From NCBI RefSeq assembly GCF_046105845.1, contig NZ_CP151004.1: a stretch of 64,000 bases of DNA. One strand, written 5' to 3'. The DNA is from Escherichia coli. GTDB taxonomy: Bacteria; Pseudomonadota; Gammaproteobacteria; Enterobacterales; Enterobacteriaceae. The first letter of the stretch is position 1; each line of letters starts with the position of its first letter. The position numbers and the translations under genes were made by a program. The notes under the pieces are model-generated. The model made no database searches and was not told the origin of the DNA. It saw only the letters and a program-made list of their open reading frames with translations. This document shows, piece by piece, positions 5,752-55,479 of this stretch.

Positions 5752-5943
5752 AATGGCTCACTCAAGCTTGCTCACGATTGATTCCAGTAACAAACCGTAT
5801 TGTGTAATTATTTCTATAGCAGGTCGCTATATAGGCTTGTATACATCGAATAATTTGAAAATCAAAGAGATAGGTAGATTTTCACTCGAAAGTAGTATTA
5901 CGTGTAAGTGAGGAGTAATTATTGTTCGGTATCAAAGGGAGAC

Positions 5944-5969
5944 AAAAAAAGCGCCCGCAGGCGCTTTTT
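5944..5969 (-). terminator. Rho-independent terminator downstream of serS
   Basis: Perfect palindrome aaaaagcgcc-cgca-ggcgcttttt flanked by A and T runs, just past the serS stop. Confidence 0.7.
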
Positions 5970-5989
5970 AGATTCAGAAAAATTGGGTA

Positions 5990-9496: not shown

Positions 9497-12400
9497 TTAG
9501 TCAAACGGCGGTGGGGCCAGCACTTCACGATTACCGTTGTGCCCCTGCTCGCTGACAATCCCCTGCGCTTCCATCTGTTCGATAATACGCGCTGCACGGT
9601 TATAACCAATGCGGAACTGACGCTGTACGCCAGAAATTGATGCTTTGCGTTTTTCAGTGACAAACTGCACCGCCTGATCGAACAACGGATCCAGCTCTTC
9701 AGCGCCATCGAAACCGCCCGCGCCACCTTCGCTTTCGCTGTCGGAGGTGATGCCATCAACATACTGTGGGCGACCACGCGCTTTCCAGTCCTGCACCACG
9801 GCATGAACTTCCTGATCGCGAACAAAAGCACCATGAACACGTACCGGCAACGTGGAGTTCGGCCCAGAGTAAAGCATATCCCCCATACCCAGTAGTGATT
9901 CCGCGCCAGCCTGATCAAGAATGGTACGTGAGTCAATCTTACTGGATACGGTAAAGGCGATACGGGTCGGAATATTCGCTTTAATCAGACCAGTAATAAC
10001 ATCAACCGATGGACGCTGAGTTGCCAGTACGAGGTGGATACCCGCGGCACGGGCTTTTTGCGCCAGACGTGCTATCAGCTCTTCCACTTTTTTACCTACG
10101 GTCATCATCAGGTCGGCAAATTCGTCCACCAACACCACAATGTATGGTTCTTTTTTCAGCACCGGATGCTGGGCGTCCATACTGTCACCCGGCTTCCAGT
10201 ACGGGTCTGGAATCGGACGCATCATGCGATCGGCTTCAGCAATTTTTTCGTTATAACCCGCCAGATTACGCACACCTAGGGCGGACATAAGCTTATAACG
10301 ACGTTCCATTTCATTTACGCACCAGCGCAAAGCGTTGGCAGCATCTTTCATGTCGGTAACGACTTCCGTTAACAGATGCGGAATGCCTTCATAAACCGAA
10401 AGCTCCAGCATTTTCGGGTCGATCATGATGAAACGCACATCTTCTGGCTGTGCTTTATAAAGCATGCTCAGGATCATCGCGTTCACACCGACAGACTTAC
10501 CGGAACCGGTAGTCCCCGCAACCAACAAGTGCGGCATTTTCGCCAGATCGGCAACCACCGGCTCACCGGCGATATCTTTACCCAGCACCACGGTTAATGG
10601 CGACGGATTATCGCGGAATTTGGCGTTATCCAAAACTTCGCGCAGATATACGGTTTGTCGTTTTTTATTCGGTAACTCCAGACCTACATAGGGTTTGCCA
10701 GGAATAACTTCAACGACACGCACCGCCACCGTCGAAAGTGAACGGGCAAGGTCCCGTGACAAGTTAGAAATACGCGCCGCTTTTACGCCCGGTGCCAGGT
10801 TAAGTTCAAAGCGAGTGATAACCGGCCCCGGAGAGTAATTGACAACATCGGCTTTAATACGGAAATCAGCCAGACGCGCTTCCACCAGACGCGCCATTTG
10901 TTCAAGCGCAAAGGTATCTACCGGCTCCACTTCGCTCGGCGGAGGTGTCAACAAATCCAAAGAAGGCAGCGGCGTCGTCGGTTTATGCAACGGACGGCTG
11001 TCGCCATTACGCATCAACAGCGGATGAAGCAGGGTATCCTGCGGCTGTGGCGCAACTGGCTGTTGTGGCTGCTGATACTGCGGCTGCGGTGCAACCGGTT
11101 GTTGTGGCTGCTGATACTGCTGCTGCGGTGCAACCGGTTGTTGCGGCTGCTGATATTGTGGCTGCGGCGCAACCTGCTGTTGTGGCTGCTGATACTGCTG
11201 CTGCGGTGCAACCGGTTGTTGCGGCTGCTGTACAGGTTCAACAATTGGCGTAAACAACGGTTCGTGTGGACCATCATCCAGCAACGCTTTCATTGGCGAA
11301 AATTCAAAATCATCCAGCGAGAACGGATTCGCCCCAGCCGGTTGTTCGCCGGAATAACGTTGTTGTTGAGTTTGCGCAAACTGACGAGCCAGTTCAGCCT
11401 CTGCCGCAGCATCTGCATCTTCTGCGTTTACGGGCACATCATGTTGATACTGTTCGCCATAGCGTTGCTGCTGTGTCTGGGCGAACTGACGTGCCAGTTC
11501 ATCCTGCTGCATCGCATCGATTTCATCATCGTTGTACTGATCGCCAGAATCGTACTGATTGCGCTGGGCTTCACGGGCTTTTTCTTCCGCCGCACGCTGT
11601 GAGGGCAGCTTAATACCGTAAGACGCCAATTCACGACGAGTTGGCACGCGGATACGTTTCGGTCGTGGCAACTGCGGGCCAATCCCCTCTTTGACCTGCG
11701 GACGCGGTCCAGCGCTATTTGCCAGACTGAAGACTGGCGCGGCAACGGTTGCGGCAGCCCCCGTCGCCAGTGTCGCTTTTTTCACGCCAGATGCCAGAGG
11801 GGAAACAGCGGCAGCGGCTTCCACTGGAGGTACTGCTGCAACAGAAGGTGCTTTTAGCGAAGATTTGATCGGTTCTGGTTCTTTAACCGGTTCTGGAATC
11901 GGTTGATACCAGGCCGCAAGTTGTTCACGTTCACGGGCTCGCTTCTCTTCCACTTCTTCAAAGTAGTAAAGCGGCGGACGCGCGGGTTTTGTCTCTTCTA
12001 CAACGGGTTCAGGCTCCACAACAGGCTGCTGTTCAACAGGTTGCGGCTGTTGGTACAACGGCTCCTGAGCGACTGGCTGCTGATAAGTTTGCTCAGTCTG
12101 GTATGTAGACTGTGGAGCAAAAGTGGATTGCTGCTCTTCGGCTTGCCAGGCGTTACCTGCCACCGATTGTTCTGGCGCAGGGGCGTAATACGGCTGTTGC
12201 GCAGACTGTTCCGGCGCAGGGGCGTAATACGACTGTTGCGCAGACTGTTCCGGCGCAGTTGCGTAATACGGTTGCTGAACAGGTTGTTCCGCCGCAGGCG
12301 CATAATACGGCTGCTGTGGCTGTACAGGTTGTTGCAGCGGCTCATTATATTGCACTGCAGGCTGCGCATATTGTGGCTGCTGTGGGTAACCTTCCGGTGC

Positions 12401-13525
12401 AGGAGCAATCACCGGCTCTCCCGTTTGTGGCCCCGGTACAGGCTGCCAGGCTACTGTAGGTTGTGCAGGTGCAACATCAACAGAGGCAACAGGTGGCGTC
12501 TGAGTCACAGGTTCAACCGGTGCAGCCCAGCTTTGCGTCGCCGTGGTAGCAGCAGCTGCTACAGCAACAGGTTCGGTAATTGGCGCACCGTTTAATAATG
12601 GATCGTACTCGTCATATTCTGGCTGCGTTGCACGATTGCCCGAAAAGAGGACGTCGTCAGGGTCGGCAGCCACACCGCGTGCAGTGTAGGTAATCTCTTC
12701 GTCATCATCCATCCGCTTACCGGAGAACAACGCAGCGTCTGTTTGCCGCCCCATCGGATTAATGAATTTTTCCGCCAACCGTTTACGACGCGCTAGCGCG
12801 CCGCGAAGAATACGAGCACGGCGTGATTCATGCTGTTTGCCGTGATTTTCATCTTCATACTCTTCGTCATCTTCATACTCATCTTCATCGACCCAGGTAT
12901 CATCGCGACGGGTACGATTACTGGCGAAGGTGAGAATGTTTAAAATCCAGCCGCCGAGTTTTTCAGCAATGGTCACCCATGACCAACCGGTGAACAGCGT
13001 CAGACCCGCAGCCCAAACGCAGAGCAGCGCAATAGTTCCCCCGCTACTGTGTAGCAGTGGTTGTAGCGTAGTGCTTAGTAAGCTGCCAATGACGCCACCG
13101 GAGGCAAAATACCAGATATCGTCAGCGTTGATTGCCGCCAGACCACAGGAGGTAAGGATGAGCGCCAAAACGCCAATGATGCGTAGCGAAACGGCAAAAT
13201 AATCAATGTATTCGTCGCTGGACTGATGACGCCAGGCAAACCAACAACCGCCGACAATAATGACGGGAATGGTGTAAGCCATCACGCCAAAAATAAAGAA
13301 CAGCGTATCTGCCAGCCATGCACCGGGCATCCCACCTAAATTATGGATAGGTTCATGCCAGGCCGTTTGCGACCAGCTGGGGTCCGAAGGGTTAAAGCTT
13401 AGTAAGGCAGCCATCAACCAGACGGCAAACAGGACAATAAGGATCAGCAACGCCTCCAGAAGGCGGCGGCCGCTACTTAACTTTGTCAATGTGACTTCTT
13501 TGTCTTCAGTGTATTCCTGGCTCAA
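9497..13525 (-). CDS. ftsK: DNA translocase FtsK
   Basis: 1342 aa; N-terminal membrane domain, long Pro/Gln-rich linker, C-terminal motor with Walker A GTTGSGKS and gamma domain. Confidence 0.95.
11041..11235 (-). repeat. In-frame 39-bp tandem repeats in ftsK linker (about 5 units, [13 protein letters not shown]-type)
   Basis: Near-identical units ggctgctgatactgctgctgcggtgcaaccggttgttgc repeated head-to-tail on the + strand. Confidence 0.85.
12160..12320 (-). repeat. In-frame 39-bp tandem repeats in ftsK linker (about 4 units, [13 protein letters not shown]-type)
   Basis: Units ggcgcaggggcgtaatacggctgttgcgcagactgttcc repeated with a few substitutions. Confidence 0.85.
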
Positions 13526-13659
13526 GAAAGGCTCTCCAGGTTACAGGCTTTTCCTGCCCGATGCTAAAACGGACAACAGTACCAGGTTACCCCAGTACTG
13601 TTGCTGTATGGATTAACAGGAGTGTAATCAAAATACGCCGATTTTGCACCTGTTCCGTG

Positions 13660-14154
13660 TTAGCGCGTCTTAATAACCAGACGATTACTCTGCTTGACTT
13701 CTTCCATAACAACGTATGTCCGTGTGTCATTGACGCCAGGCAGACGCAGCAGGGTTTCCCCCAACAACTTACGGTAAGCTGACATATCCGGCACGCGTGT
13801 TTTCAACAGGTAGTCGAAATCACCGGATACTAAATGACACTCCTGAATTTCTTCAAGTTTTTGTACAGCGGTATTGAATTGTTCAAACACATCCGGTGCG
13901 CCACGATTCAGAGTAATCTCAACGAATACCAGAAGTGATGCATCCAGATAATGAGGGTTCAGCAGCGCCGTATAGCCCTGAATAAACCCTTGTCTTTCCA
14001 GCCGACGCACACGCTCAAGGCACGGCGTTGGGGAAAGTCCCACACGTTTAGAAAGCTCGACGTTAGAAATACGCCCATCCTTTTGCAACTCATTAAGAAT
14101 GTTACGATCGATACGGTCGAGATCTTTGCCAGGGCGCTTCTTGCTATCTACCAT
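13660..14154 (-). CDS. lrp: Leucine-responsive regulatory protein
   Basis: ORF 13660..14208; start at internal ATG gives MVDSKKRPGKDLDRIDRNIL..., 164 aa. Confidence 0.95.
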   Translation of the reverse strand: MVDSKKRPGKDLDRIDRNILNELQKDGRISNVELSKRVGLSPTPCLERVRRLERQGFIQGYTALLNPHYLDASLLVFVEITLNRGAPDVFEQFNTAVQKLEEIQECHLVSGDFDYLLKTRVPDMSAYRKLLGETLLRLPGVNDTRTYVVMEEVKQSNRLVIKTR

Positions 14155-14581
14155 TATTATTGTCTCTCTGTATTCCTTCCCTACTCCTGTCTGACCCTGA
14201 TACATCACTGTTCAGAGTCGCTACCCGTCACGATAGACCGAAATCATGAAGATTCACGGCGCGCAATGCCTGGGTCTACGGTGAGAAGACCGTTGCCTTG
14301 TGGCAGCTATCGACATCACGAATGGCGTCTGTCCACGCCATACGTAGATTTCACTAGCACGGTAAACATGGTATTTACATGCATGGTTATGCGCATATAA
14401 GAATACTGTTTTTTTTCTTCCTCGAATGTTTTCGCAAAACACCAGGGGATTGTCAAAGCAAAACATCGATTTTTAGTACAACATGCCAGATATTCATTAC
14501 CAGGGGCGTTTATTCATCATTTAATCGGCTTATAAAGCGGGAAATTTAAGTAGCAGAGGTGATAATGACGGGAGAGTTTGA

Positions 14582-15664
<1,083 letters not shown>

Positions 15665-15692
15665 TTTTACAAATCAGTAACAAAAGTAAAGA

Positions 15693-15730
15693 AGGCGACA
15701 CCATGCGACTATGGGTCGCCTTTATTTTTT
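15693..15730 (+). terminator. Rho-independent terminator after trxB
   Basis: Hairpin ggcgacaccatgcgactatgggtcgcc followed by tttatttttt. Confidence 0.6.
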
Positions 15731-15786
15731 CCTCGTTGTAACATTGCTCTGCAAATAATTCTGATAACTCACCTGCTAAGCGTGCA

Positions 15787-17553
15787 ATGAATAAATCCCG
15801 TCAAAAAGAGTTAACCCGCTGGTTAAAACAGCAAAGCGTCATCTCCCAACGTTGGCTGAATATTTCTCGTCTGCTGGGCTTTGTGAGCGGCATATTGATC
15901 ATTGCCCAGGCCTGGTTCATGGCGCGAATTCTGCAACATATGATTATGGAGAATATTCCCCGTGAAGCCCTGCTGCTTCCCTTTACGTTACTGGTTCTGA
16001 CCTTTGTACTGCGCGCATGGGTGGTCTGGTTACGCGAACGGGTGGGTTATCACGCCGGGCAGCATATCCGCTTTGCCATCCGCCGTCAGGTTCTCGACCG
16101 TCTGCAACAAGCAGGGCCAGCGTGGATTCAGGGTAAACCGGCGGGGAGCTGGGCGACGCTGGTACTCGAGCAAATTGACGATATGCATGATTACTATGCA
16201 CGCTACCTGCCGCAAATGGCGCTGGCAGTGTCGGTGCCGTTGCTGATTGTGGTGGCTATCTTCCCCTCAAACTGGGCTGCAGCGCTGATTCTGCTGGGCA
16301 CTGCACCGCTAATTCCGTTATTTATGGCGCTGGTTGGAATGGGGGCTGCCGATGCTAACCGACGTAACTTTCTCGCTCTTGCTCGCTTAAGTGGGCATTT
16401 TCTCGATCGCCTGCGCGGCATGGAAACATTGCGTATTTTTGGTCGTGGTGAAGCTGAAATTGAAAGTATTCGTTCTGCTTCGGAAGATTTCCGCCAACGG
16501 ACAATGGAAGTGCTACGGCTGGCGTTTTTATCCTCCGGCATTCTCGAATTTTTTACCTCGCTGTCAATTGCTCTGGTGGCGGTCTACTTTGGTTTTTCCT
16601 ATCTCGGCGAGCTGGATTTTGGTCACTATGATACTGGCGTGACGCTGGCTGCGGGTTTTCTAGCCCTGATCCTTGCGCCGGAGTTTTTCCAGCCATTACG
16701 CGATCTCGGTACGTTTTATCATGCTAAAGCCCAGGCTGTTGGCGCAGCTGACAGTCTGAAAACGTTTATGGAAACCCCGCTCGCCCATCCGCAACGTGGT
16801 GAGGCGGAATTAGCATCAACCGATCCGGTGACCATTGAAGCCGAGGATCTGTTTATTACATCACCAGAAGGTAAAACGCTGGCTGGACCGCTGAACTTTA
16901 CTTTGCCAGCAGGCCAACGTGCAGTGTTGGTTGGTCGCAGCGGTTCAGGTAAAAGCTCACTGCTGAACGCGCTTTCTGGTTTTCTCTCATATCAGGGATC
17001 GCTACGAATCAACGGGATAGAATTACGCGATTTATCACCGGAATCATGGCGTAAACATCTCTCCTGGGTTGGGCAAAACCCACAATTACCGGCAGCAACA
17101 CTACGGGATAACGTACTACTGGCACGACCTGATGCCAGCGAACACGAGTTACAAACAGCGCTGGATAACGCCTGGGTCAGTGAGTTTCTACCGCTCCTGC
17201 CACAAGGCGTTGATACGCCTGTTGGCGACCAGGCTGCCCGCCTTTCCGTAGGGCAGGCACAGCGCGTGGCGGTGGCCCGAGCATTACTAAATCCCTGTTC
17301 GCTATTACTGTTGGATGAACCCGCTGCCAGCCTTGATGCTCACAGTGAACAGCGCGTAATGGGGGCGCTTAATGCCGCCTCTCTGCGCCAGACAACGTTA
17401 ATGGTCACCCACCAGTTAGAAGATCTTGCTGACTGGGATGTCATTTGGGTAATGCAGGATGGTCAGATTATTGAGCAAGGACGTTACGCGGAATTAAGCG
17501 TGGCTGGTGGTCCTTTCTCCACATTGCTGGCCCATCGTCAGGAGGAGATTTAA
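15787..17553 (+). CDS. cydD: ABC transporter CydD (cysteine/glutathione export, cytochrome bd assembly)
   Basis: 588 aa; N-terminal TMD plus C-terminal ABC ATPase (GRSGSGKSS, LSVGQAQR). Confidence 0.95.
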   Translation: MNKSRQKELTRWLKQQSVISQRWLNISRLLGFVSGILIIAQAWFMARILQHMIMENIPREALLLPFTLLVLTFVLRAWVVWLRERVGYHAGQHIRFAIRRQVLDRLQQAGPAWIQGKPAGSWATLVLEQIDDMHDYYARYLPQMALAVSVPLLIVVAIFPSNWAAALILLGTAPLIPLFMALVGMGAADANRRNFLALARLSGHFLDRLRGMETLRIFGRGEAEIESIRSASEDFRQRTMEVLRLAFLSSGILEFFTSLSIALVAVYFGFSYLGELDFGHYDTGVTLAAGFLALILAPEFFQPLRDLGTFYHAKAQAVGAADSLKTFMETPLAHPQRGEAELASTDPVTIEAEDLFITSPEGKTLAGPLNFTLPAGQRAVLVGRSGSGKSSLLNALSGFLSYQGSLRINGIELRDLSPESWRKHLSWVGQNPQLPAATLRDNVLLARPDASEHELQTALDNAWVSEFLPLLPQGVDTPVGDQAARLSVGQAQRVAVARALLNPCSLLLLDEPAASLDAHSEQRVMGALNAASLRQTTLMVTHQLEDLADWDVIWVMQDGQIIEQGRYAELSVAGGPFSTLLAHRQEEI

Positions 17554-20777: not shown

Positions 20778-20865
20778 GGTGAGGTGTCCGAGTGGCTGAA
20801 GGAGCACGCCTGGAAAGTGTGTATACGGCAACGTATCGGGGGTTCGAATCCCCCCCTCACCGCCA
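20778..20865 (+). tRNA. serW: tRNA-Ser (anticodon GGA), 88 nt with long variable arm, encoded CCA
   Basis: Acceptor stem GGTGAGG/CCTCACC, anticodon loop cuGGAaa, T-arm gggggttcgaatccccc, genomic CCA end. Confidence 0.95.
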
Positions 20866-20908: not shown

Positions 20909-21025
20909 CATATTGCACTCCAGGGGGGATGAGAAGCCCCGACCGGGGTTCGACAACTGGCGCAGCCAGTTGGACAGACCACGAACACAGTGAGTGGGCT
21001 GCCCGCAGGGCGAGCGAAGCGAGTC

Positions 21026-21088
21026 AATCCCCCCTCACCGCCATATTTAAAGAAAAGCTCGTACGAAAGTACGAGTTTTTTTTCGCAT
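21026..21088 (+). repeat. Direct duplicate of serW 3' end (last ~21 nt) plus its terminator
   Basis: aatcccccctcaccgccatat...gtacgaaagtacgag-T8 repeats 20847..20917 with a few substitutions; period about 179 bp. Confidence 0.7.
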
Positions 21089-21321
21089 TTTATCTGCCTG
21101 TACGGCAGTGAACGGTATAAAAATCGAGTTTTTCTTTCGGTTGGCTTTCTAAGCTGCCTGTACGGCAGTGAACTCAAATACTACACGTTTAGTCCGTTAT
21201 TAATAAAGCAAAACCATCTCATTTTCCTGCTGCCACCCTTTTTTATTCTTACCTTCCAGCACCATTAATTATCAACAACTTACCTTCACCTCCAAAAATA
21301 GGGTTTTCACCGCCCCAGCCT

Positions 21322-53028: not shown

Positions 53029-54162
53029 TTAAACCGTCAGCACCACACAGCTGTCCACTTCCCAGCACAAACGCACTTCGTCGCCCCAGGTCGGTAACCC
53101 TTTACGATGACGATGGGCGTTTTGTAGCTGGGCGCTAATCATCTGCCCACTTTTCAGACGAACGTGATACACCGAAAGATCGCCGAGATAGGCAATGTGT
53201 ATCACCTCCCCCACCGCAAAATTGTAGCCGTCAGCAGGCGGTTGATCGCAAAGCATGATTTTTTCCGGGCGCAGCGCCACATGTACCGGCACGTTATCGA
53301 CCACCGAAGCATCCGCATCGACTTTCAGTGGATGCACCAGCCCCGGCGAATAAAGCACCAGACCATCTTCCTGACGCTCTTTGAGTACACCTTCAAAGAC
53401 ATTAACCGAGCCAATAAATTCGGCGCTGTAGCGGGTGGTCGGATGCTCATAGATCTCTTCCGGTTCGCCAATCTGGACAAATTTCCCACGATTCATAATG
53501 GCGATACGCCCCGCCATGGTCATCGCCTCTTCCTGATCGTGGGTGACCATCACACAAGTCACACCGACACGCTCCAGAATATCCACCACTTCAAGCTGCA
53601 TCCGGTCACGCAGCTTTTTATCCAGCGCGCCCATCGGCTCATCGAGCAGTAATAGTTTCGGGCGCTTGGCAAGGCTTCGGGCCAGTGCCACACGCTGTCG
53701 CTGACCGCCGGAAAGCTGATGCGGTTTGCGTTTGGCGAACTCCTGCATATGCACCAGGCCGAGCATCTCATTGACCCGGCTGGCAATTTCCGCTTTCGGC
53801 AATTTGTCCTGTTTCAGGCCAAAAGCGATATTCTGTTCCACGGTCATATGCGGAAACAGCGCGTAAGACTGAAACATCATATTGATGGGGCGCAGGTAAG
53901 GCGGAACCTGTGACAAATCGACGCCATCAAGCATTATCTGTCCGGCAGAAGGTTGTTCGAAACCTGCCAGCATACGCAGCAGCGTGGACTTGCCACAGCC
54001 GGATGCGCCCAGCAGCGCGAAGATTTCACCTTTGTAGATGGTCAGGCTGACATCATCCACTGCATGTTGACCATCGTAGGATTTGGTGAGGTTGCGGATT
54101 TCTAATAGCGGCGTCAGCGCCTTACGGGTTTTCGCCTGCGGGCGAGGGATAGCGTCATTCAC
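53029..54162 (-). CDS. potG: Putrescine ABC transporter ATP-binding protein PotG
   Basis: 377 aa; Walker A GASGCGKST, signature LSGGQRQR. Confidence 0.95.
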   Translation of the reverse strand: MNDAIPRPQAKTRKALTPLLEIRNLTKSYDGQHAVDDVSLTIYKGEIFALLGASGCGKSTLLRMLAGFEQPSAGQIMLDGVDLSQVPPYLRPINMMFQSYALFPHMTVEQNIAFGLKQDKLPKAEIASRVNEMLGLVHMQEFAKRKPHQLSGGQRQRVALARSLAKRPKLLLLDEPMGALDKKLRDRMQLEVVDILERVGVTCVMVTHDQEEAMTMAGRIAIMNRGKFVQIGEPEEIYEHPTTRYSAEFIGSVNVFEGVLKERQEDGLVLYSPGLVHPLKVDADASVVDNVPVHVALRPEKIMLCDQPPADGYNFAVGEVIHIAYLGDLSVYHVRLKSGQMISAQLQNAHRHRKGLPTWGDEVRLCWEVDSCVVLTV

Positions 54163-54290
54163 GGCTGCTCTCCGGCATTGAATGTGTGCAAGCGCACCAT
54201 AATGGTGCGAATTGCCGGCGGGTGTGGTGCGCCCGTCCGGCAGATTAATTTGTCGCAGAACGTCTATTGCTGGCTATCTGTAGGCTGGAA

Positions 54291-54345
54291 CCATCCCCTC
54301 GCCCCTTTGGGGAGAGGGTTAGGGTGAGGGGAAGCCCCGTCATAC
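54291..54345. repeat. GC-rich imperfect palindromic intergenic repeat (unclassified)
   Basis: atcccctcgcccctttggggagagggttagggtgaggggaagcc in the potG-potF gap. Confidence 0.35.
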
Positions 54346-54366
54346 CTGTTCAGCAATCTGAACTGA

Positions 54367-55479
54367 TTATTTTCCGCTCTTCACTTTGGTCCACGCGCGG
54401 GTGCGCACACGGTCGATTTTCGGATCCTGTACTTTCAGAGTGAACAGCTTCGCACGAACATCCGCAGGCGGGTAAATACCCGGGTTATCACGGACTTCCG
54501 CACTCACCAGCGGCGTAGCTTCTTTGTTAGCATTGGCATAGAACACATGGTCGGAAATATGCGCCACCACATCCGGGCGCAGCAGGTAATTCAGGAATTG
54601 ATAGGCTTCGTCTTTATTTTTGGCATCCGCAGGCATGGCGAAGACATCAAAGAACGCCATCGCCCCTTCTTTCGGAATCGAGAACGAGACATTAACGCCA
54701 TTCTTCGCTTCCTTCGCGCGGTTTGACGCCTGCCAGACATCGCCCGCCCAGCCAATAGCGACGCAGATATCGCCGTTTGCCAGGTCGTTAATGTATTGCG
54801 ATGAATGGAAATAACGAATGTTCGGGCGCAGCTTTAACAGCAGATCGGTTGCCGGTCCGGTGTAATCATCTGCTTTAGTGCTGTTGGGATCTTTACCGAG
54901 ATAATTCAGCACGGTAGCAAACACTTCTTCCGGTGCATCAAGGAAAGAGACGCCGCAGCTTTTCAGTTTTTCCAGATTTTCAGGTTTGAGGATCAAGTCC
55001 CAGCTATCGACGGGCACGTTTTCGCCCAGCACCGCTTTAACTTTATCGACGTTATAGCCAATCCCGGTTGTCGCCCACATATAGGGCATAGCAAATTTAT
55101 TATCCGGGTCGTGTTTGGCAACCAACTTCAGCAGTTCCGGGTCGAGATTCTTCCACTCCGGCAATTTGCTTTTATCCAGCGGCTGGAAAACTCCCGCAGT
55201 CAACTGGCGTTCAAGAAAGCTTGCTGACGGCACCACCAGGTCAAAGCCGGTGCTACCCGCCATTAATTTGCCTTCCAGTACTTCGTTAGAGTCGAAAACA
55301 TCGTAGACGACTTTAATACCGGTTTCTTTTTCAAAATTGGCCACCGTGTCCGGGGCGATATAATCAGACCAATTATAAATGTGGAGTGTTTTTTGTTCAG
55401 CCGCGAGCGTACCGACAGAGACGGCCATCAGAGCACCCGCAACCAGACCCGATAGCCATTTTTTATTTAAGGCGGTCAT
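54367..55479 (-). CDS. potF: Putrescine-binding periplasmic protein PotF
   Basis: ORF 54367..55629; start at internal ATG gives MTALNKKWLSGLVAGALMAVSVGTLA signal peptide, 370 aa. Confidence 0.95.
   Translation of the reverse strand: MTALNKKWLSGLVAGALMAVSVGTLAAEQKTLHIYNWSDYIAPDTVANFEKETGIKVVYDVFDSNEVLEGKLMAGSTGFDLVVPSASFLERQLTAGVFQPLDKSKLPEWKNLDPELLKLVAKHDPDNKFAMPYMWATTGIGYNVDKVKAVLGENVPVDSWDLILKPENLEKLKSCGVSFLDAPEEVFATVLNYLGKDPNSTKADDYTGPATDLLLKLRPNIRYFHSSQYINDLANGDICVAIGWAGDVWQASNRAKEAKNGVNVSFSIPKEGAMAFFDVFAMPADAKNKDEAYQFLNYLLRPDVVAHISDHVFYANANKEATPLVSAEVRDNPGIYPPADVRAKLFTLKVQDPKIDRVRTRAWTKVKSGK

Follow-up and report, generated by a model that had tools for sequence, protein, structure and literature searches.

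The potF-potG spacer raised the question of what kind of sequence the GC-rich palindrome lying in it is, how it came to be there and whether it contributes anything to the potFGHI operon. The locus was followed in the window, i.e., the whole 64-kb stretch of E. coli DNA that was analysed, and the features discussed below are collected in Table 1. An earlier sequence-only reading had described a GC-rich imperfect palindrome in the potG-potF intergenic region, and the quoted string was indeed located at 54293-54336. Its outer inverted arms, TCCCCTCGCCC (54294-54304) and GGGTGAGGGGA (54322-54332), are 91% complementary, and inner arms that are complementary at 9 of 10 positions, CCCTCGCCCC (54296-54305) and GGGGAGAGGG (54309-54318), were recognised by reading the sequence. 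The names of the two genes were confirmed by the annotation of a genome 100% identical to the window over 54100-54430. The spacer between them comprises 204 nt (54163-54366), and the element is intergenic, inside the potFGHI operon, 35 nt past the potF stop codon and 133 nt ahead of the potG start codon. The previous placement of the palindrome just upstream of the potG start had to be revised accordingly, the 3' end of potF being the nearer landmark.

Table 1. Features of the potF-potG locus in window coordinates (energies are those of the predicted RNA folds).
Feature	Position	Strand	Remark
potF, putrescine-binding periplasmic protein gene, upstream gene	54367-55479	-	stop codon 54367-54369
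potG, ABC transporter ATPase gene, downstream gene	53029-54162	-	GTG start (54162)
122-bp lineage-specific segment replacing 12 bp CGCAGTCGTAGA of the common allele	54243-54364	-	alignments with K-12, CFSAN061763, E300010 and E. albertii
Full similarity to other BoxC copies, ~48-49 nt	54288-54336	+	nhmmer 54288-54335; blastn paralogs 54288-54336
BoxC/PIT/TMECO core, type A with one mismatch	54296-54331	+	exact fit to published consensus
Pyrimidine block CCCTCGCCC of BoxC core	54296-54304	+	
First loop CTTTG of BoxC core	54305-54309	+	
First purine block GGGAGAGGG of BoxC core	54310-54318	+	
Second loop TTA of BoxC core	54319-54321	+	
Second purine block GGGTGAGGG of BoxC core	54322-54330	+	
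Terminal G of BoxC core	54331	+	
Small stem-loop GUUCAG-AUUG-CUGAAC in the insertion, 3 nt past the potF stop codon	54348-54363	-	-6.9 kcal/mol
Native intercistronic stem-loop GCCGGACGGG...CCCGCCGGC, both alleles, outside the insertion	54214-54241	-	-19.4 kcal/mol
Native palindrome/stem-loop GCGCACCAUUAUGGUGCGC, both alleles	54192-54210	-	-10.1 kcal/mol

On sequence grounds, the palindrome belongs, as an ordinary copy, to BoxC, a family that is itself already known, having been described since the 1990s and examined in detail in 2015. BoxC (Bergler 1992; Bachellier), the PIT element (Hoyne and Maher 2000) and the TMECO intrastrand triplex motif (Holder et al. 2015) are one and the same element, with the TMECO consensus 5'-CCCTCNCCC N3-6 GGGNGAGGG N3 GGGNGAGGG [G/T/C/-]-3' (PMC4666352); an earlier survey gave BoxC as 56 bp long and present in 32 copies (PMC2267715). 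The consensus pattern had one exact match in the 64-kb window, at 54296-54330 on the + strand and followed by G at 54331, against 0.00 expected from 100 shuffles. A 22-mer taken from the element likewise occurred once in the window (0.00 expected, 100 shuffles), which thus holds a single BoxC copy. For comparison, 13 K-12 loci (L083-L095) holding 17 BoxC copies were fetched and aligned. The core from the window was identical at 36 of 36 positions to K-12 TMECO nos 7, 11 and 15, which makes non-homology with the K-12 copies implausible. These three are classed as type A mm, with a TTA second loop and one mismatched triplet, in Table 1 of PMC4666352. The potF-potG core was assigned to the same type because of its second loop TTA (54319-54321) and its one mismatched triplet, formed by G 54301 opposite A 54313. 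A nhmmer profile built from 13 K-12 type-A copies aligned with 54288-54335 at E = 5e-19.

The presence of further copies was also evident genome-wide, as blastn detected BoxC matches in 5,425 of the 5,426 complete E. coli genomes; the median genome had 18-19 such places and the richest 34, for a family expected at about 20-30 copies. The earlier proposal that the palindrome belongs to one of the small intergenic repeat families of E. coli, with box C among the candidates, was thereby confirmed and the family given a name, and the alternative of a structure with no other genomic copies fell away. Of the interval originally delimited, 54291-54345, the part homologous to the family was retained and extended to 54288-54336, and 54337-54345 proved to be unique flank. 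In the supplement of Holder et al. 2015, potF, potG and PCN033 were looked for and not found.

An element that is GC-rich, palindromic, intergenic and multi-copy could as well be suspected of being a MITE or a member of a different family of enterobacterial repeats, REP/BIME or ERIC/IRU. In the window, neither the REP/BIME consensus nor the conserved core of ERIC, in the form of the ERIC2 primer, had a match at up to 3 mismatches. As regards a MITE, no terminal inverted repeats join the ends of the 122-bp segment that carries the element (54243-54364); the ends show only an imperfect 8/9-nt near-repeat, AAATAATC / AAATTAATC, and, relative to the empty site, 12 bp are missing. Assignment to any of these families was considered highly improbable.

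The idea of a palindrome that arose by chance at this one locus, or of a polyamine-responsive RNA element akin to the antizyme frameshift stimulator, has still less to recommend it, and its probability was regarded as negligible. In the Rfam search nothing above threshold was found at the potF-potG locus. A sub-threshold match to Antizyme_FSE (RF00381) was obtained on the stem (18.4 bits, E = 1.8), and it does fall within a polyamine-transport operon, but the gathering score of the family is 40 bits and the alignment is limited to a generic CCCCUCACCC / GGGCGAGGGG stem. Moreover, each genome has about 18 occurrences of the same sequence, at loci that have no connection with polyamines, and the element lies between genes, with no frameshift context. 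Both versions of this explanation were refuted by the multi-copy distribution, and the Antizyme_FSE match was regarded as a coincidence.

The potF-potG copy resembles the rest of the BoxC family in its exact fit to the consensus, its intergenic location, its multi-copy nature and the polymorphism of its locus between strains, as reported for the family. It differs in the lack of the left module of about 35 nt (GATGACAAA..CAAAAA.G.GC.CGGACGGT) common to most K-12 type-A copies, in being set in unique flanks and in that the filled locus is missing from K-12 and 99.4% of complete E. coli genomes. The extended flank consensus of the K-12 type-A copies, which is an observation of the present analysis lying outside the published definition, is not shared by the potF-potG copy, and the profile alignment ends at 54288 and 54335. 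Beyond the 36-nt core, the K-12 type-A copies have in common the left module of about 35 nt and, on the right, AACAG-GCCAGCAC. In K-12, head-to-head pairs of type A and type B copies were also seen, which make up palindromic units some 100 bp long or longer. The BoxC unit that is repeated may extend beyond the published core. On E. coli plasmid records, BoxC-like matches were obtained at 365 places at E<=10 with a 97-mer and at 66 places at E<=1 with a 60-mer, many of them perhaps weak or due to chance; no association of TMECO/BoxC with plasmids was reported in 2015 (PMC4666352).

The alignments placed the BoxC copy within the 122-bp lineage-specific segment, in which BoxC accounts for about 49 nt, between unique flanks of 28 nt on the potF side and 45 nt on the potG side. 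The K-12 spacer is 94 bp long and represents the short allele. The filled allele was found in 33 of the 5,426 complete E. coli genomes (about 0.6%), which matched a 331-nt junction query end to end at 100%, carriers being defined by at least 80% coverage of this query. Among the remaining genomes, nearly every match sampled corresponded to the short allele, aligned as two pieces with 63% coverage. The two genomes whose potF is closest to that of the window (98.8% and 98.0%) both have the 94-bp spacer.

Outside E. coli, the sample comprised E. albertii and eight other enterobacterial genera and was without E. fergusonii, Salmonella and the cryptic Escherichia clades. E. albertii aligned only with the last ~80 nt of the spacer, on the potG-proximal side, and the eight genera either did the same or did not align at all. 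In E. albertii and the eight genera (Citrobacter, Kluyvera, Enterobacter, Pseudescherichia, Leclercia and others), neither the triplex motif nor similarity to the 122 bp was present among the matches listed. As the segment is missing from the outgroups checked and from almost all other E. coli, the empty site was taken as ancestral and the filled site as derived. Ancestral retention of the segment was rejected, given that the outgroups showed neither the motif nor similarity to the 122 bp among the matches listed. The potG-proximal 80 nt, with the two native hairpins and the ribosome-binding site, were left unchanged by the insertion.

The source genome of the window is absent from the 5,426-genome set. 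Its potF (54424-55479) had at most 98.8% identity to any complete genome, with 1,613 of the 5,421 matching records below 95%, and for the ftsK-lrp-trxB-cydD stretch (10000-16000) the best identity was 98.9%, to two insertion carriers. These values point to a lineage that has no representative in the complete-genome set. The whole pot region was 96.1-96.8% identical to that of K-12. In the flanking genes, the backgrounds of the insertion diverged from the window by 2.0% (strain 1190), 1.6% (L097) and about 3.8% (L096), and the 122 bp were identical on all compared backgrounds, with zero or one difference in the block 54062-54423. The invariance of the segment and its intact core could, judging from these comparisons, reflect constraint, or equally well mean that the segment arose recently and was spread by homologous recombination.

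The source of the flanks was searched for in several collections. Among the 5,426 E. coli genomes, a 55-nt potG-side flank occurred once per genome and solely at potF-potG in the same 33 carriers, and against the PLSDB plasmids it gave chance matches only. An exact 24-mer of this flank was absent from viral contigs and present in two metagenomic contigs, both of them with the same potF-potG allele. When both flanks were locally aligned with the flanks of the 17 K-12 BoxC copies, the scores stayed within the shuffle null. That a canonical 36-nt core stands in flanks for which no homologue was detected could be accounted for if a dedicated mechanism, such as templated synthesis or core-directed gene conversion, copied or regenerated BoxC cores, instead of ordinary transposition or the decay of an old insertion. 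Such a mechanism was judged very unlikely; if it were true, loci like potF-potG would be footprints for inferring how it works.

The published properties of the family bear on how the 122-bp replacement could have occurred. Formation of a triplex of the TMECO type was shown in vitro by CD and NMR, with a Tm of 74 C for the type A mm oligonucleotide and with the 36-mer of the potF-potG core carrying G-to-C changes as the control, and DMS gave no triplex footprint in vivo (PMC4666352). Earlier work, as cited there, found polymerase arrest in vitro, and BoxC loci showed an 'intergenic change' in 39% of comparisons versus <1% for controls (PMC4666352). By analogy with the in vitro data, the G-rich + strand of the potF-potG copy could, when single-stranded, adopt a purine-motif intrastrand triplex. 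A structure of this kind would be able to stall polymerases and is statistically tied to local indels, an association that fits the polymorphic state of the potF-potG locus. The purine half of the core, GGGGAGAGGGTTAGGGTGAGGGG (54309-54331, +), also conforms to the canonical quadruplex motif G3-N3-G3-N3-G3-N3-G3 and includes GGGTTAGGG; a quadruplex was excluded by NMR for the full oligonucleotide by Holder et al. (PMC4666352).

Taken further, these properties would make the element a fragile site in the DNA, at which a transient triplex or hairpin formed during replication would cause stalling and template switching and so the 12-to-122-bp replacement. The locus is polymorphic exactly at the element, in line with the reported excess of intergenic change and the polymerase stops in vitro. 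However, just two alleles and no intermediate or decayed forms were seen in the 5,426 genomes (those beyond the carriers through sampled matches), and with only these two alleles the instability is not ongoing at potF-potG. The lack of a triplex footprint in vivo also speaks against it, and cause and effect are inseparable here, as the repeat may simply be the DNA that was inserted. Fragility as the origin of the allele was retained as a tentative possibility, clearly short of an even chance. It is compatible with a passively carried BoxC copy, the preferred reading, and not exclusive of it: the indel may owe something to instability caused by triplex or hairpin formation.

The placement of the copy is typical for the family, since 12 of the 13 fetched K-12 BoxC loci lie downstream of a stop codon and two of the 13, pstA-pstB and yihS-yihR, are flanked by co-directional genes that belong to known clusters. 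The copies at these two loci share family, type and orientation with that at potF-potG (the mRNA being C-rich) and lie 18-27 nt after the upstream stop codon; they differ in having the extended K-12 flank consensus and in their loci. At potF-potG the G-rich strand of BoxC is the + strand, i.e., the template strand for potFGHI, and the potFGHI mRNA consequently has the C-rich complement.

RNA folds of the element reached -21 to -24 kcal/mol on either strand, with z = -1.2 to -1.5 relative to dinucleotide shuffles. As 14-25 of 200 shuffles were as stable, the hairpin energy is unexceptional for the base composition, and it is the repeat-family identity, not the fold energy, that makes the feature non-random. 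In the mRNA, the C-rich complement would fold into a predicted stem-loop (about -16 to -20 kcal/mol) located 35 nt beyond the potF stop codon, with the -6.9 kcal/mol hairpin alongside, both being added by the insertion upstream of the native pair. The two native hairpins kept a pairing probability of about 0.9 when the long and the short allele were folded. The GCGCACCAUUAUGGUGCGC palindrome (54192-54210) is followed by a conserved TTGCAC and ATGCCGGAGAGCA. In Citrobacter, Leclercia, Pseudescherichia and Superficieibacter the sequence is different, yet GC-rich hairpins are found at the same place of the spacer, which suggests that an intercistronic structure between potF and potG is conserved.

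The scan of the - strand for an intrinsic terminator (a GC-rich stem-loop with a U-run) detected none, and with no U-tract on the sense strand the BoxC element is not an intrinsic terminator. Terminator and promoter scans of the sense strand at the locus gave nothing above chance. Antisense to the pot genes, a terminator-like site was noticed at 54348-54372 (+), with the stem GTTCAGCAATCTGAAC (54348-54363) within the insertion and a T-rich tail overlapping the potF stop codon. By chance alone, the region would be expected to contain about 0.6 sites of this type.

The features described so far invite a comparison with REP/BIME elements such as that at malE-malF, which are likewise GC-rich palindromic repeats following the gene for a periplasmic binding protein in an ABC transporter operon and are predicted to form a stem-loop in the mRNA, but which have no sequence relationship with the potF-potG element. 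For REP, mRNA-stabilising and protein-binding roles have been demonstrated. No function has been demonstrated for BoxC (PMC4666352).

Were the insertion an intercistronic mRNA stabiliser or attenuator of the malE-malF kind, it would protect the potF mRNA against 3'-5' exonucleases or make potGHI partly independent, so that the binding protein would increase relative to the membrane components. Its location 35 nt past the coding sequence of a periplasmic binding protein, the high pairing probability of the predicted hairpins, the occurrence of BoxC between genes of the K-12 pst cluster and the invariance of the segment on diverged backgrounds are all consistent with such a role. Against this stand a hairpin stability no better than that of composition-matched shuffles and a sense strand with no U-tract. 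In published tests, from earlier work as cited in PMC4666352, BoxC had no promoter or terminator activity, and its orientation relative to genes is unbiased (PMC4666352). In addition, the operon already possesses a native hairpin of -19 kcal/mol at this position, and the insertion is missing from >99% of E. coli. A stabilising or attenuating role was accordingly considered unlikely. The added stem-loops would at most modestly change the 3' decay or processing of the potF segment, and a modest effect on the 3' stability of the potF mRNA is possible, as far as the predicted folds indicate.

Very probably, then, the palindrome is one type A mm BoxC copy that was brought in by the 122-bp insertion/replacement and has been carried passively, with no function specific to this locus. 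At potF-potG it would represent passive, structure-prone DNA. The value of this as a discovery is small, the practical gain being that the repeat has been named and that a rare derived allele with its exact empty site has been defined in the operon. The filled and empty forms of the spacer offer a convenient natural pair for studying BoxC effects on mRNA fate or on local mutation, and the insertion allele can be used as a lineage marker.

Several other features of the 64-kb window were recorded alongside. A tRNA-Ser(GGA) gene at 20778-20865 is followed by an RtT-like element at 20909-21043. Beyond it lies the remnant of a type I-F CRISPR array, in which a complete 28-nt repeat (21146-21173) matched Rfam CRISPR-DR4 at 50.1 bits and lies about 31 nt from a partial one (21095-21114). 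Rfam matches at the gathering level were also obtained for the sRNAs STnc130 and RybB, at 5842-5976 and 61209-61287, respectively.
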